In this document: positions 22,290-39,665 of the stretch, in pieces | Layout: each line of letters opens with the position of its first letter | Position numbering within the stretch: position 1 is the first letter of the stretch | Source: Planctomycetota bacterium | GTDB lineage: Bacteria > Planctomycetota > UBA1135 > UBA2386 | NCBI GenBank assembly: GCA_965223545.1 | Contig: OZ245006.1 | Location: 2,752,001-2,816,000 of the forward strand | Reading direction: 5' to 3' | DNA: 64,000 bases | The notes under the pieces: generated by a model | Databases searched by the model: none | The model's input: the letters and a program-made list of their open reading frames with translations, nothing else | What the model was told of the DNA's origin: nothing | Made by a program: the position numbers and the translations under genes

Positions 22290-23525
22290 TCAGAACTCGG
22301 GCCAGGTGACGACGTTGCTGATCGTCAGCTGGCCGGTGGTGCCGTCGAGGCAGGCACCGGCGAACAGCAGTACGCCTGGCGGGAAGCCCGGCGGCAGCGA
22401 GACGTTGGGGGCGCTGAAGCCGACCTTGCCGCTGCTGGGCACCGGTCCGACCACGAGCGTCAACGTCGCCGGCGCCAGCAGGAAGATCCCGCCCGCGTTG
22501 CCGGGACCCGGCTCACACTGCAGCATCGCCTCGAGGGAGAACGGCTGCCCACGCGGCGGACACCGCGGCAACACCGTCAGCTGGCCCGGCAGTGTGTCGA
22601 CGGTGTCGACGCCGGTGGTCCAGATGCCACCTGGCGGGAACGTGCACGCCGTGGTCGTGGCGAGCGCCTTGGTGACGATGTGCACCTGCTCCGGCACCGC
22701 GGTGTGCGTCGTCGTGAAGAACACGTCGTCGTCAGGGTCGTACTCCAGCGAGTGGTAGAAGTTCCCCGGGGGGCTCGAGCTCGCCGCGGGCCCCGAGGGC
22801 AGGGTGAACAGCCCGACGCCGCCGGTGCCGCCATCGACGGTGAATCCGAGACTCGCCGGGGCTCCCGGGCAGTAGTCGACACCCGACACCGGACCGGTCC
22901 CAGCAGCACCTCTGACGTTGGTCACCAGCACTGGCGGCGCATAGGTGCAGTCGGGACGCACGGCCATGCGGTAGATGTCGCCGTTGTTCTGACCGAAGAA
23001 GATGTTGCCGGTCGGATCGGTGCAGACCGAGGTCACCGGCATCGTCGGGGAACTCGCCGCCCCGACCAGGGTCGCCGCCGCACCCCGCTGTCCACGGGGG
23101 AAACGGTACACTCCACCGTCGCTCGCCACGAGCGGGTCGCCGTTGCGGTCGAAGGCGATGCCGTTGATGGTCGAGCTCGCGGCCATCTGTCCCCAGTTGA
23201 GGGAGACGAGGACGTTGCCGGCACCGTCGATGAGAAGCCGGCTGAGCTGGCCCGCGCTGGCGCGGTGCCCGCCGATCCAAACGTTTTCGTTGACGGGATC
23301 GATCTGCACCGCCTTGACGTCCGGGCTGCCGGTCATCGCGGCGAGGCCGTTGACCACCTGGCAATTGCCACTGACCGGATCGACGATCATCAGACCGTCT
23401 GGCGCGGTCGACGTCGCGCTGGTCAGGTAGAAGGAGGCGACGTGGCGACCGTAGGGGATCTGCGCCGAGAGGGGCGCTGTGGCCATGGCGCTCGCGAGAA
23501 GGAGCGCACAGCGGAGGGTGTACAT
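22290..23525 (-). CDS. Secreted beta-propeller-like protein
   Basis: Signal ending PLSA-Q; blade-like repeats (GIAFDRNGD, VCTDPTGNIFFG, LEYDPDDD). Confidence 0.7.
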   Translation of the reverse strand: MYTLRCALLLASAMATAPLSAQIPYGRHVASFYLTSATSTAPDGLMIVDPVSGNCQVVNGLAAMTGSPDVKAVQIDPVNENVWIGGHRASAGQLSRLLIDGAGNVLVSLNWGQMAASSTINGIAFDRNGDPLVASDGGVYRFPRGQRGAAATLVGAASSPTMPVTSVCTDPTGNIFFGQNNGDIYRMAVRPDCTYAPPVLVTNVRGAAGTGPVSGVDYCPGAPASLGFTVDGGTGGVGLFTLPSGPAASSSPPGNFYHSLEYDPDDDVFFTTTHTAVPEQVHIVTKALATTTACTFPPGGIWTTGVDTVDTLPGQLTVLPRCPPRGQPFSLEAMLQCEPGPGNAGGIFLLAPATLTLVVGPVPSSGKVGFSAPNVSLPPGFPPGVLLFAGACLDGTTGQLTISNVVTWPEF

Positions 23526-23559
23526 CGCGGTAGGCTACCACGGCTTGGCGCCACTCGGA

Positions 23560-25866
23560 ATGCGTACCGGAACGCCACACCCTACTCTGACGCTCGACCG
23601 CATCCTGCGCGCCGCGGCCCGCATGGCCATCGTCGCGCTGACGCTGGTGCCGATCCTCTGCGGCGGCGAGCTCGGACTGCCGGCCCTGTACTTTCCGGCG
23701 GTGACCGCCAAGCACGTGGGGTGGTTGGCGCTTCTGGCCATGGCATCGGGCTGCTGTCTCGCGCTGACGCGATGGCGGGGCGCGGCACTCGGTTCGCCGC
23801 TGGGATGGCTGGCGGTCGTCGGCGTCGCGCTGGCCGCTGTAGCCGCGGCCCTCGGCGCGGATGCCACGCAGTCGTGGACCGGATCGTTCGAACGCCTCGA
23901 CGGCGTGCTGCTGACCGCGAGCGGCGCCGCGTATTTTCTCGTCGCCCGGGCGGTGATGGACGCGACCTGGTGGCGCCGGTGGCTCTGGGCCTCGGTCGCG
24001 GTTGCCTGCGTGCTCGCCGCAGTCGCACTGCTGCAGAGCGCGCAGGTCCTGCTCGGTGTCGCGCTGCCCGCATGGATCGCCGACCCGTCGGTCCCCCCGC
24101 CAACCGAGGCGCGCTTCTTTCGCGCCACCGGCCGTTTCGGCTCCGGGGTGTTCGCCGCGTCGTACTGGGCCTTGCACTCGGCCATGCTGATGACGGCGGG
24201 CGCCCGACAGACCGGCCGGCGTCGATTGGCGTTGCTCGCGCTGGCGGCGCTGACGGGGGCCGCCGTCCTCGCCAGCCAAACCCGCATCACCGCCGCGGCG
24301 CTGTGCGCAGTCGCCGGCTGGCTCGGCATCCGCACGGCGCGCGCGGGCACGCTCTCGCCGCGCGGGCGCCGCCTGCTGATCGCGACCATGGCGGCCGCGG
24401 CCTTCGCGATCGCGATCCCCCTGGTGGCACTGGCCATCGACCCGGTGCGCTTCGAGCAGTGGCCCGGCCTGAGCCGCGCGGTCTCCGCGATCCACGAGCT
24501 CGGCCGCCGCGGCCTGCTGTTCGGCGTCGCGTTGCAGGGCTTGGCAGACGCGCCGTGGACGGGGGTCGGCCCCGCCAACTTCGAGCTGGTCTGGGACCGG
24601 CACTTCGAGCCGCGCCTGTGGACCACGGCGGAACGGTTCGACCACCCGCACAACGCGGCGCTGGCGTGGGCGGCGGCCGCCGGCTTGCCGGGCTTGGTCT
24701 GGGTCGCGCTGTTCGCGGCGGCGCTCTGGCGCGCAGTACGGCGGCATCCCGATCCGGTCCCCCGCGCCGCGCTGACCGCGGCCTTGCTCGTCTACGCGGC
24801 GCACGCCGCGCTGCAGCCGACCGCCCTCTGGGACCACATCGCGCTGTGGTCGATCGCGGCGTTCGTCGACCGCCGCGGGCGTCCACCCGATCCCGCAGTC
24901 CACGCTTCTCGACCCGCCGCGGGCTCGGCGCGGCTGGCGCTGGCGGTCGCCATCGCCGCCGGGCTCGGCGCGATTCCACTGGCGCTGGCCCGCGACGCGC
25001 AGCGGCTCGGCGCGCTGGCGCAGCTCCGGGCGGCGCCCGCCATCGCGGAGAGCGCGCCCCGGCACGCGGACGCGCATTGGCAGCAAGCGGCGGGGACGCG
25101 CACCGCGCGCGAGGCCTTCCACGAGATCGGCGTGCTGGCGCTGCGCGCGGCGAGCGATCTGGAGATCGCCGACACCACCGCACTGCCGCTGGCACAGCTG
25201 GTCCAGCGCGCCGCCGACGCGCTGCACGCGGAGCGCCCGGCGCGCGTGCACGAGCTACTGCTCGCAGCCAATGTCGCCATCCAAACCGCGGCACGCGTGC
25301 GCCGCGACCGCGAGCGCTCGCAGTCGCACCTCGAGCGCGCCCGCGCTCTGCTGGAGCGTGCTCTCGAACGCTCGCCCCGGCGCGCCTCGCTGCACGAGGC
25401 GATGGCGTTGGTCCACCTCGGCACCCCCGGCGAGCGCAGACAGGCGATGGCGGCGGCGCGCACGGCGCACGAAGTCGCGGCGGGCAACCACCGCAGCGCG
25501 CTGCACGCGATCGCGATCGCGCTCGGGCTGCGGCGGTTCGAGCTCGCGCAGGAGCTCGCCGCGCCGCTGTATCCCGTCGACGGTGCGCTGCACCGGTGGC
25601 CGAGCGACCGCCTGCTGCAGGCGAGCCGCACCGCGGAACGCCCGCTGTTCTGGCTGCCTCGGCTGCGGCCGCGCGTCGACGCGCTGCGCGGCCTGGTCGA
25701 CCGAGGGGCGGTCGCGCCCGAGGAAGCACGACGGCGCGTCGTCGGCATGGCGGAGCTCCTGGTCGCCGGCGGCCGGCGGGAAGACGCGGTGCGCGCCGTC
25801 CGCGCGTTCGTCACCTGGGATCCCGACTTCGCGACCGAGGCCGAGCGCCGCATCGCGACGTGGTGA
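23560..25866 (+). CDS. O-antigen ligase (Wzy_C)-like membrane protein with C-terminal TPR-like region
   Basis: Many TM helices; SWTGSFERLDG, SQTR, PWTGVGPANF, FDHPHN motifs. Confidence 0.8.
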   Translation: MRTGTPHPTLTLDRILRAAARMAIVALTLVPILCGGELGLPALYFPAVTAKHVGWLALLAMASGCCLALTRWRGAALGSPLGWLAVVGVALAAVAAALGADATQSWTGSFERLDGVLLTASGAAYFLVARAVMDATWWRRWLWASVAVACVLAAVALLQSAQVLLGVALPAWIADPSVPPPTEARFFRATGRFGSGVFAASYWALHSAMLMTAGARQTGRRRLALLALAALTGAAVLASQTRITAAALCAVAGWLGIRTARAGTLSPRGRRLLIATMAAAAFAIAIPLVALAIDPVRFEQWPGLSRAVSAIHELGRRGLLFGVALQGLADAPWTGVGPANFELVWDRHFEPRLWTTAERFDHPHNAALAWAAAAGLPGLVWVALFAAALWRAVRRHPDPVPRAALTAALLVYAAHAALQPTALWDHIALWSIAAFVDRRGRPPDPAVHASRPAAGSARLALAVAIAAGLGAIPLALARDAQRLGALAQLRAAPAIAESAPRHADAHWQQAAGTRTAREAFHEIGVLALRAASDLEIADTTALPLAQLVQRAADALHAERPARVHELLLAANVAIQTAARVRRDRERSQSHLERARALLERALERSPRRASLHEAMALVHLGTPGERRQAMAAARTAHEVAAGNHRSALHAIAIALGLRRFELAQELAAPLYPVDGALHRWPSDRLLQASRTAERPLFWLPRLRPRVDALRGLVDRGAVAPEEARRRVVGMAELLVAGGRREDAVRAVRAFVTWDPDFATEAERRIATW

Positions 25867-25990
25867 GTCGCTGCGATGCAGCTGCTCTCACATCGAGACT
25901 GCTCGCCTCTCGGGGCCAGCCGGCGCCGCCTTGGGCCGATGAACGGGATGCCGCGGGTTTCCGCGGGCACGACACAGCGGGGGGAGATCC

Positions 25991-26794
25991 ATGAAGCAAA
26001 CGTCAGTCTTGAGCGTCCTCGTCGCGGGCGCTCTGTCGCTGCCGGGCTACGCGCCGGCGCAGAACACCGCTCGCGGTGTGGTCACCACTGTGTCCAGCGA
26101 TGGATCGGAAGTGGATTTTCGACGGCAAGTGGTGCGCGGCAAGAACACGGTGTTCGAGTTCTACGCCGATTGGTGAGGCGCTTGCCGCACCACGGGGCCT
26201 CAGTTGGAGGCCGCCATCAAACAGTCCGAGGACACCGTCCTGCGTCGCATCAACATCGTGAGCTGGGACAGCCCGGTCGCCAAGCAACACTCGATCCGCT
26301 CGATTCCACACTTCGTGATGTTCGACACTCGCGGCCGCAAGGTTGCCGAGGGAAAGGACGTTCTCAAGCGAGTGCAGCAATCCGCGACCGTGGCTTCATC
26401 GCGTGACGCGCGCACCAAGGGCCGCACTGAACGGGTGAGAAAGCGCGGGGGCAGCTCGGTGCGGACGGTGGTCCGCAACGGCGACCGAATCCGGCTGACG
26501 ACCGTGTTGGCTCGCGGTCAATACACCGTTTTCGAGTTCTATGCCGACTGGTGTCACGCGTGCGAAGAGTTGGCGCCGAAGTTGGAGACGATGGCCAACG
26601 AGACCGACGGCGTCGCACTCCGCCGGATCAACATCAAGGACTGGGAGAGCCCCGTCGCGAAGCAGTACGAGATCAAGTCGCTCCCACACCTGATCATGTT
26701 CGACAAGAAGGGCAAGCAGGTCGCCGAGGGCCGCGATCAAGTCGTGCGGCGGATGGTCGACCTGCAGCGGGCAGCCGCGACCCCGGGTCGCTGA
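25991..26794 (+). CDS. Exported tandem thioredoxin-domain protein; probable selenoprotein (UGA 26174-26176 = Sec, UxxC)
   Basis: ORFs 25991..26176 and 26204..26794 are in the same frame; EFYADW-U-GAC matches EFYADW-CHAC of domain 2; SECIS-like hairpin follows. Confidence 0.85.
26196..26212 (+). promoter_or_regulatory. Putative bacterial SECIS apical hairpin
   Basis: GGCCTC-AGTTG-GAGGCC; 6-bp perfect stem; G at loop position 2; 25 nt between UGA and loop. Confidence 0.65.
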
Positions 26795-26813: not shown

Positions 26814-27179
26814 CTACGACGCTTCCAGGATCTCGATGTCGTAGCCGTCGGGATCGCGCACGAAAACGTAGTTGGAGGCGACCTCGGGCTTGCTGCGCCG
26901 GTACCACCACCCGCGCGCCTCGACGTCCGCGATCACCGGCCCCAGATCGTCGACGTGGAAGGCGAGGTGACCGAACTGCGTGCCGGGCTCGTAGTCGCGC
27001 CCGTCGTGATTGTGGGTCAGCTCCAGGTGGTAGCCCCCGCTCTCGTCGGTGAGGAAGACCAGGGTCGCCTCGTCACCGATGGTCTTGCGGCGCACTTCGC
27101 GGAGCCCCAGGAACCCGGTGTAGAATTCCAGGGCCTTCTGCAGATCCCGGACCCGGATCATGGTGTGAGCCAGTCGCAT
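26814..27179 (-). CDS. gloA: VOC-family lactoylglutathione lyase (glyoxalase I)
   Basis: HTMIRVRD...FY..LG, LELTHN, GHLAF.VDD, FVRDPDGYDIE. Confidence 0.85.
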   Translation of the reverse strand: MRLAHTMIRVRDLQKALEFYTGFLGLREVRRKTIGDEATLVFLTDESGGYHLELTHNHDGRDYEPGTQFGHLAFHVDDLGPVIADVEARGWWYRRSKPEVASNYVFVRDPDGYDIEILEAS

Positions 27180-34170: not shown

Positions 34171-34279
34171 AGCCCGGCACGAACCTACTTTCGCCTTTCG
34201 ACTATCATCGGCCCAGGCTGCTTGACGACCGAGTTCGGGATGGGATCGGGTATTTCCAGCCAGGTATGGGCACCGGGCA
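34171..34279 (-). rRNA. rrf: 5S rRNA (short, ~109 nt)
   Basis: CCCGATCCCATCCCGAACTCGG core on the minus strand; terminal stem GCCCGGTGC / GTGCCGGGC. Confidence 0.93.
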
Positions 34280-34407
34280 ATACGCATGCGTTCTCCGGTG
34301 GACGCGTGATAAGCGTCGTGCGCCGGAGAAGACGCATAGGGTGTGAGGAACGTCGCGAAGGCGGCGCTTTGCGCCGTCTTCGATCGAGAAGACCAAGGTG
34401 AGAATGT

Positions 34408-37363
<2,956 letters not shown>

Positions 37364-37414
37364 TATATCCTCACGCGAGATCCTCTTGATCTCGACGATT
37401 CCTCACACCCTACT

Positions 37415-37425
37415 TGTCAAAGAGC
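37415..37425 (-). promoter_or_regulatory. rrn boxA-like antitermination element (spacer before 23S)
   Basis: GCTCTTTGACA on the minus strand, identical to the leader copy. Confidence 0.7.
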
Positions 37426-37509
37426 TTCGTAACTGCTTTGGCGCCCGCGGGCTCGTCGGCCGAAATTCGACCGGGCTCGACCGCCGGACGAGGCTCGTGG
37501 CGTCGAGAC

Positions 37510-37585
37510 TGGTGGAGACGATGGGACTCGAACCCACGACCTCCTGGTTGCAAACCAGGTGCTCTACCAGTTGAGCTACGTCCCC
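37510..37585 (-). tRNA. tRNA-Ala(TGC)
   Basis: 76-nt cloverleaf, anticodon TGC, encoded CCA, in the 16S-23S spacer. Confidence 0.96.
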
Positions 37586-37609
37586 GACGCGCGGTAGGCC
37601 CCCCAGAAG

Positions 37610-37686
37610 TGGTAGGCCTAGGTGGATTCGAACCACCGACCTTACGCTTATCAGGCGTACGCTCTAACCAACTGAGCTATAGGCCT
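37610..37686 (-). tRNA. tRNA-Ile(GAT)
   Basis: 77-nt cloverleaf, anticodon GAT, encoded CCA. Confidence 0.96.
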
Positions 37687-37877
37687 ACGGTCGGGCGCCA
37701 CCCCGCGCCGAACCGATGATGGCCGACGCGAGGCAGAAGAAGATTGGATAGCCCCGAGGTCGCGTGTGCCCTGTGCTTCTCGGCACGTGCAGGCGACCCG
37801 GCTGCCACTCGGCGCGCAGCCCTCTTGCGAGGGTCACGAACCGTGCTTGAGCCGGCGCTGGACGCGCCGGTTTCCTT

Positions 37878-39439
<1,562 letters not shown>

Positions 39440-39665
39440 AGAAGTTCTGATCGGGATTCCGCAAGAGACAGCAGCACGACGAACGCACCGCTGCGCGAAC
39501 CGCACCCGCAGGCACGGCGTCTCACGATCCCATTTTCTTGGTCGCCAAAACCACTCCGCCAACCGCGACACCGCCACTCCCCGGCCGGAACCGGAACGCG
39601 GCAACGACGCAGCGGCAAAGGCCTTGGACGCTTTTGCTCACACGCTGTTTCGAGGCTATCCAGAA

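Follow-up and report, generated by a model that had tools for sequence, protein, structure and literature searches.

A probable exported selenoprotein with tandem UxxC and CxxC thioredoxin domains in an uncultured planctomycete

Introduction

The locus raises a simple question: is an in-frame TGA that divides two open reading frames a stop codon or a selenocysteine (Sec) codon and, in the latter case, what would a protein that joins a UxxC and a CxxC thioredoxin domain do? The locus lies within a window of 64,000 nucleotides, the whole stretch of DNA analysed here, which comes from a planctomycete genome of 8.1 Mb that is 91% complete. The gene is flanked by an O-antigen-ligase-like membrane protein upstream (23479-25866, + strand) and a convergent glyoxalase downstream (26814-27179, - strand), neither of which recurs beside its relatives. 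The window also carries a complete rRNA operon (16S, tRNA-Ile, tRNA-Ala, 23S, 5S; 34172-39440, - strand).

The gene and its reading frame

The following features define the gene.

25980..25986, + strand: Shine-Dalgarno-like GGGGGAG, 4 nt 5' of the ATG; the 3' end of the window's 16S rRNA is CCTCCTT
25991..26794, + strand: whole gene, 267 aa with U62; ATG at 25991, final TGA at 26792-26794, a single internal TGA
26174..26176, + strand: in-frame TGA, almost certainly a selenocysteine codon at the nucleophilic position; the family holds 48 distinct TGA domains

An earlier sequence-only reading of this DNA had claimed that a short frame runs through the TGA into a longer one, and this stands: read directly, the codons after the TGA are GGC GCT TGC in the same frame, the last of them (26183-26185) encoding the resolving cysteine, Cys65, and read-through from the ATG yields the 267-residue product. 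Standard ORF calling gives a 61-aa piece (25991-26176) and a 196-aa piece (26204-26794) with a TTG start, and the predicted splitting by gene callers is borne out by the public protein collection, where the two pieces are separate records (P0027 and P0002, respectively). The TTG start of the 196-aa piece lies in the loop of the hairpin described below and in the middle of a helix, and the piece has no signal peptide.

The TGA is not an assembly slip. It is spanned with 0 differences by two independently assembled contigs, X3 (depth 414) and X1 (depth 5.5), both of which read TGA and not TGC or TGT; they come from two runs of one study, and X1 may be the window's own source. Six sequencing runs from other studies yielded short pieces only, none of them bridging the TGA. 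Among the public runs listed as containing the gene there is no RNA run, which says nothing about its expression. No promoter-like site or terminator was found on the gene's strand, and no second copy of the gene was found in the window's genome.

Selenocysteine machinery and conservation of the TGA

The genome encodes the full machinery, i.e., selA (384 bits), selB (318 bits), selD (346 bits) and tRNA-Sec (selC, 74 bits) with a TCA anticodon; selD itself carries an in-frame TGA, along with a hairpin whose loop is 5 nt long. Because selB scores above the cut-off in about 311-313 of the 339 genomes of the same class, the whole class appears to decode selenocysteine, and the presence of selB does not discriminate carriers of the family (33 of 38) from genomes overall (313 of 339).

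With the read-through protein as the query, matches at E<=1e-11 were obtained in 38 of the 339 class genomes. Every listed class match contains a TGA, and the motif is U-x-x-C in all 31 loci that were read out of the 38 that match, the window's own locus included. A phylum-wide sample of 401 genomes added 34 matching ones; among 29 loci fetched from other classes, 17 have UxxC and 12 have CxxC (10 by pattern and 2 by eye). The UGA is aligned with the catalytic cysteine of 47 Cys domains, and a quick tree implies 7 changes between the Sec and Cys forms. The three refuting conditions named in the sequence-only reading thus all turned out in its favor: the Sec machinery is present, the contigs read TGA, and relatives retain the TGA and the hairpin, with the addition that Cys forms without a hairpin also occur outside the window's own class. 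Given its catalytic position and the conserved hairpin that follows it, the internal UGA is almost certainly a selenocysteine codon, and the gene almost certainly encodes a 267-residue selenoprotein.

One family of another class contains three loci with Cys and without a hairpin (L175, L179 and L181), as opposed to L173, L174 and L196. The three group inside a mostly-Sec clade and likely represent an independent Sec-to-Cys reversion.

Comparison of the neighbourhoods of 58 loci (about 1.5 kb on each side) revealed only overlapping shadow frames and small-clade synteny, and no conserved partner or substrate gene.

The SECIS hairpin

The element expected to direct recoding lies immediately downstream of the TGA.

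26196..26212, + strand: bacterial SECIS hairpin GGCCTC-AGTTG-GAGGCC, lying within the codons for G-P-Q-L-E-A; identified by conservation, covariation and the consensus criteria of PMC13188914

The stem arms occupy 26196-26201 (GGCCTC) and 26207-26212 (GAGGCC) and enclose the loop AGTTG (26202-26206), 25 nt from the UGA. According to the legend of Fig. 2 in PMC13188914, bacterial SECIS elements have a loop of 3-9 nt, a stem of 4-16 bp, a spacing of 16-37 nt, a G in the first two loop positions and an MFE <= -7.5; the window hairpin agrees with this consensus, with its 5-nt AGUUG loop, 6 bp, 25 nt and -13.2 kcal/mol. Taken alone, the hairpin is not more stable than shuffled sequences (z -0.42; 62 of 200 shuffles fold as well), so that its weight rests on conservation. 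RNAalifold applied to 19 sequences recovered this hairpin as the only structure; both partners vary in 4 of 7 pairs, 88.7% of the cells are paired, and the covariation score was reached by 0 of 500 shuffles and was lower in slid controls, the shuffle control being inflated by the relatedness of the sequences.

Furthermore, the hairpin follows the TGA. Of the 48 TGA domains, 41 retain at least 5 of the 6 stem pairs, whereas no Cys domain (of 47) retains more than 3; the AGTTG loop is present in 41 of the 48 TGA domains; and the rare proline codon CCT, with a genome background of about 4%, appears in 37 of the 48 TGA domains versus 3 of the 47 Cys domains. These comparisons include domains of at least 65 bits, with identical DNA counted once, and the Cys control set is rough, being dominated by nearly identical soil-metagenome sequences retrieved with a Cys pattern. 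This retrieval, from genome and metagenome collections, returned Cys forms only and is uninformative on the frequency of the TGA form. The suggestion that a hairpin lies at SECIS distance is thus upheld by consensus, by covariation and by the tie to TGA rather than Cys domains, and by these sequence criteria the hairpin is a SECIS.

An identical 12-nt hairpin core, at an identical spacing after the TGA, is found in an unrelated gene of an IMG/VR contig (L231:322-1464, - strand) that encodes a 380-aa secreted TlpA-like protein with a W-U-G-P-C motif and, by eye, dockerin-like and C-terminal sorting-like parts.

Protein anatomy and domain comparison

The read-through protein consists of four parts.

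25991..26059, + strand: probable Sec-pathway signal peptide, residues 1-23, with Lys2, a hydrophobic core and A-P-A before the cut (hydropathy and by eye)
26075..26386, + strand: thioredoxin domain 1, W-U-G-A-C, with Ile-Pro106 at the cis-proline position (Pfam, alignment, model)
26387..26455, + strand: basic, predicted flexible linker of 23 aa with 8 Lys/Arg; pLDDT <50 at model residues 119-131
26456..26776, + strand: thioredoxin domain 2, W-C-H-A-C, with Leu-Pro232; TGT at 26552-26554 and TGC at 26561-26563

The signal peptide proposed earlier is probable, judged by eye and from hydropathy: the maximum over 12 residues (Kyte-Doolittle) is 2.45 in the N-terminus and 0.73 elsewhere in the protein. 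An upstream hydrophobic stretch, i.e., a signal, a lipoprotein signal or an anchor, is present in 43 of the 48 TGA members, and the protein is likely exported.

The two domains are paralogous, as had been noticed from the letters. PF00085 matches in two stretches (E 5.7e-28; 97.4 bits versus a cut-off of 23.5), and each domain alone exceeds the cut-off (40.7 and 52.2 bits). From the strand before the active site onward, 40 of 71 residues (56%) and 65.7% of the bases are common to both; the TGA of domain 1 aligns with the TGT (26552-26554) of domain 2, which places it, as claimed, at the nucleophilic cysteine of the internal paralogue. The catalytic pair of domain 2 is Cys188/Cys191, and the proline of each domain is invariant.

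In an alignment-based structure model, both domains have the plain thioredoxin order of elements and a pLDDT >90, the linker falls below 50, and the pTM is 0.50. Both domains are basic (pI 9.4 for domain 1 and 9.3 for domain 2). Structure and sequence searches with the protein match thioredoxins as well as multi-domain PDI proteins, the latter by way of summed repeats. The model suggests that the two domains are likely loosely tethered and largely independent. A Lys/Arg-rich interdomain linker is common to the window protein (26387-26455) and P0003, P0004, P0021 and P0028.

Tandem architecture and its history

No other class or phylum locus (59 inspected) has two family domains in one frame (L186 consists of two adjacent genes), and all 47 of the other TGA loci are single-domain. 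Tandems do appear in protein searches, and six of them look cut at a UGA (P0003, P0004, P0005, P0021, P0028 and P0031), the UGA being deduced from the protein ends and five of the six residing on contigs <3 kb. P0003 and P0004 begin at the residue that aligns with the start of the window's 196-aa piece, P0021 and P0028 begin slightly later, and P0031 and P0005 terminate at F-Y-A-D-W. In five of the six, the companion domain has no CxxC: it is CxxS in P0003 and P0004, there is no catalytic Cys in P0021, P0028 and P0031, and only P0005 has CxxC. Five all-Cys tandems fall in other branches (among the all-Cys tandems are P0026, P0030, P0033 and P0061). Searches of the classes around four related genomes (4, 9, 1 and 18 genomes), of the 339 own-class genomes and of the 401 phylum genomes, with the best 6-7 candidates per genome scored in the latter two, did not recover the DNA of the tandem relatives, and P0021 as the query had no match besides itself.

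In quick trees, which have many open forks and do not show the two domains as sisters, neither window domain groups with the clade of single-domain genes from the same class; both lie close to these multi-domain forms and to members of other classes. Domains 1 and 2 are mutual best-scoring matches among 83 rows, and a sister relationship between them is not rejected (p-AU 0.71).

A possible trace of history is seen in domain 2.

26574..26590, + strand: position in domain 2 equivalent to the SECIS; AGTTG loop letters kept, 3 of 6 pairs, -1.1 versus -13.2 kcal/mol; possible remnant

Domain 2 uses minority codons, TGT (18%) at the UGA position and TTG (14%) at the loop position. Together with the loop letters, these could be a sign of a Sec-to-Cys reversion, of the kind described, with remnant hairpins, in PMC1794560, but a weak one because TTG is also the loop-position codon of 14 of the 47 Cys domains, and TGT is used by 7 of the 47. 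We propose that a UxxC domain was likely duplicated to give the tandem and that one copy, now domain 2, then changed to Cys and lost its SECIS stem, possibly because a second UGA would lower the full-length yield. Recoding is put at 30-40% per UGA in PMC4513850, which would make a second UGA costly and may explain the reversion or decay of the companion domain.

Proposed function and the envelope redox network

The reading that we favor, as somewhat more probable than all others taken together, is that of a disulfide reductase of the envelope whose two domains are loosely tethered and largely act on their own. SelB-tRNA(Sec) would bind the hairpin 25 nt downstream and recode the UGA, and the signal peptide would export the chain. 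The selenolate of domain 1 would attack substrate disulfides or oxidised enzymes, with Cys65 as the resolving residue; by the same thioredoxin chemistry, domain 2 would act more slowly via Cys188/Cys191 or help to hold the substrate. The single DsbD of the genome would re-reduce both domains, and the likely clients would be an MsrA and a peroxiredoxin, both putative selenoproteins with putative signal peptides encoded in the same genome. Export, reduction by DsbD and action on envelope disulfides and oxidised enzymes are all proposed by analogy with the DsbD/ScsB-TlpA-peroxiredoxin pathway (PMC3322552). A role of domain 2 as a low-selenium fallback was considered and rejected: the domain lies downstream of the UGA, and no exported form would be made without read-through.

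In the only DsbD of the genome (G000:C1:4306602, - strand; L224, L209), the C-terminal thioredoxin motif, T-U-V-N-C, opens with an in-frame TGA that is followed by a hairpin, so that this envelope electron hub is itself likely a selenoprotein. Neither DsbB nor VKOR was found in the genome, which at 91% completeness is no proof of their absence. The envelope thus presents a reducing pathway and no recognised oxidising one.

The selenoproteome appears to be large: a genome scan yielded 85 candidates with a TGA plus a hairpin. Among 20 picked by eye, the TGA lies inside the matching redox domain in 14, two are true stops and the other four are unassigned. The redox-domain candidates (L210-L229 and the scan list) comprise deiodinase-like, HMA, TlpA-like, MsrA, peroxiredoxin, lipoprotein thioredoxin, DUF3179, glutaredoxin, AhpD/CMD and three Thioredoxin_7 proteins, with second copies, by eye, of the deiodinase-like, MsrA, peroxiredoxin and TlpA genes. 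The MsrA and peroxiredoxin candidates have signal-peptide-like starts. Five TGA-plus-hairpin candidates have no Pfam family over the codon (G000:C1:492917, +; 6247186, -; 2993927, +; 1762082, -; 3622532, -) and might possibly be uncatalogued selenoproteins. W-U-C occurs in an FG-GAP protein among them, L/T-U-S-A in two paralogues, G-U-G in an HMA-like protein and W-L-U-M-C in the remaining one.

We tentatively go one step further and suggest, as an idea that may well prove wrong, a selenium-based reducing chain in the envelope, from a UxxC DsbD via exported UxxC thioredoxins to the exported Sec-MsrA and Sec-peroxiredoxin, with a Sec-to-Cys reversion captured within one polypeptide. Should this be the case, a fold that occurs in a selenium and a sulfur version within the same chain would be a natural internal control for the contribution of selenium.

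Alternative explanations

Among the alternatives to an envelope reductase, a PDI-like disulfide isomerase or chaperone, with a catalytic Sec domain and a companion that mainly binds substrate, as in PDI, survives best, and we still consider it rather unlikely. That the tandem relatives keep the fold of the companion and lose its cysteines in five of six cases is what such a function would lead one to expect, and the best structure matches are indeed to the multi-domain PDI family (ERp72 a0a, E 3.6e-12; TXNDC5; PDIA4). These ERp72/PDI matches, however, come from summed thioredoxin repeats (TM 0.37, rmsd 12 A), the PDI domain model (TIGR01126, pdi_dom) scores 65 versus a cut-off of 107, no DsbB or VKOR that would make disulfides in need of shuffling was found, and most family members have a single domain.

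Exchange between like thioredoxin domains is usually slow, which argues against a second possibility, an obligate intramolecular relay in which electrons would pass from the CxxC to the UxxC domain, or in reverse, within one chain. The sequence-only reading had favored such a two-domain Sec/Cys relay, and this part of it is not supported: every other TGA locus (47 of 47) makes do with a single domain, the companion has no CxxC in five of the six cut-looking tandems, the linker is modelled with low confidence, the pTM of 0.50 indicates no fixed packing, and both domains are basic. The intact motifs in the window protein and P0005, a 23-residue linker long and flexible enough for the domains to meet, and the all-Cys tandems of another branch would all be compatible with a relay. 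Selection probably acts on the chemistry of domain 2, whose CxxC and proline are intact, and a relay would explain this as well. On balance, we regard an obligate relay as improbable, the more so when compared with an isomerase.

A DsbA-like oxidase that inserts disulfides into exported proteins appears very unlikely. The exported thioredoxin fold and the His as the first X residue of C-H-A-C in domain 2 would suit it, but no DsbB or VKOR was found for re-oxidation, there is no match to a DsbA family in Pfam or NCBIfam, and the proline of domain 1 is preceded by Ile, a trait of reducing thioredoxins. Finally, a nonsense mutation, or two separate genes of 61 and 196 aa, can practically be dismissed: it would account for the two pieces in public collections and for a hairpin no more stable than shuffles, but not for a TGA that recurs at this codon in 48 distinct domains of the family, from many genera and classes, and that is tied to the hairpin, for the complete Sec machinery, or for a 196-aa piece that starts at TTG within the hairpin loop, in mid-helix and without a signal peptide.

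Significance

The reading of an exported, Sec-containing envelope reductase corrects the mis-annotation of a whole subfamily (48 TGA domains seen) and brings in a domain arrangement not found in the catalogues consulted, in which a UxxC and a CxxC thioredoxin domain share one exported polypeptide. With 56% of their core residues in common, and with the chain, the compartment and the expression level shared, the two domains make the long-standing question of selenium versus sulfur in thioredoxins, mostly approached via engineered mutants, directly addressable. The findings also hint that the envelope of this overlooked lineage of uncultured bacteria houses a redox network rich in selenium.

Comparison with known systems

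Proteins of TIGR02187 have two thioredoxin-like units; the read-through protein (P0001) scores 24.6 versus a cut-off of 185 with this model and 38 versus 805 with seleno_TsoB, and among the 21 families listed by the NCBIfam search no selenoprotein model (seleno_TsoB, PDO_seleno_TRX and others) comes near its cut-off. The closest known kind is the UxxC thioredoxin (PF00085), an experimentally verified bacterial selenoprotein family (PMC13188914, Table 1; see also PMC9312934 and PMC1794560). With this family, whose representative is WP_010956703.1, the window protein shares the thioredoxin fold, the Sec nucleophile with a resolving Cys, and the UGA with a downstream SECIS. It differs in its signal peptide, the pairing of UxxC and CxxC domains and a U-G-A-C that is not the canonical motif, and its subfamily has a signature of its own, the N-terminal strand T-I-S-x-G-E-x-V-D and W-x-S-P-V-A. 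A UxxC thioredoxin fold is likewise shared with several predicted families in the PMC13188914 table, namely PF13098 (thiol:disulfide interchange), cd02966 (isomerase-like), Redoxin and the AhpF N-terminal homologue TIGR02187. None of the 119 families in this table is an exported tandem UxxC+CxxC PF00085 thioredoxin; in the literature search, neither the subfamily nor the tandem form was found described, and BSepDB (PMC13326102) may list members as thioredoxin.

TrxA (TIGR01068) is a single domain of about 100 aa with W-C-G-P-C and no signal peptide, which the window protein is not; the model is passed (100.6 bits versus 96.8) only as the sum of two stretches, and the genome has separate WCGPC thioredoxins. 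The DsbD/ScsB-fed reductases (TlpA, ResA, CcmG/DsbE; for TlpA-PprX, see PMC3322552) would share the proposed role of an exported carrier from DsbD to envelope enzymes. The window protein departs from them in its use of Sec and in being closer to PF00085 (97 bits) than to Redoxin/AhpC-TSA (32-46 bits); it falls below the curated cut-offs for dsbE (37 versus 123), ResA (35 versus 170) and TlpA (25 versus 230), and the model has no Redoxin-type insertion after the active-site helix. With the PDI family (ERp72 a0a, PDB 3idv; TXNDC5), it has in common tandem thioredoxin domains on linkers, both catalytic and non-catalytic, and an export compartment. PDI proteins differ in being eukaryotic and Cys only, in their identity of 23% to the window protein and in their domain packing (TM 0.37), and the ER_PDI_fam score (51 versus 344), like that for pdi_dom, is below the cut-off; the window tandem looks like a duplication independent of the PDI family.

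Judged by curated cut-offs, the protein thus belongs to PF00085 and to the bacterial selenoproteins, and not to TrxA, TlpA/ResA/DsbE or PDI. It involves neither new chemistry nor a new decoding mechanism and represents an uncommon version of an already known type of selenoprotein.
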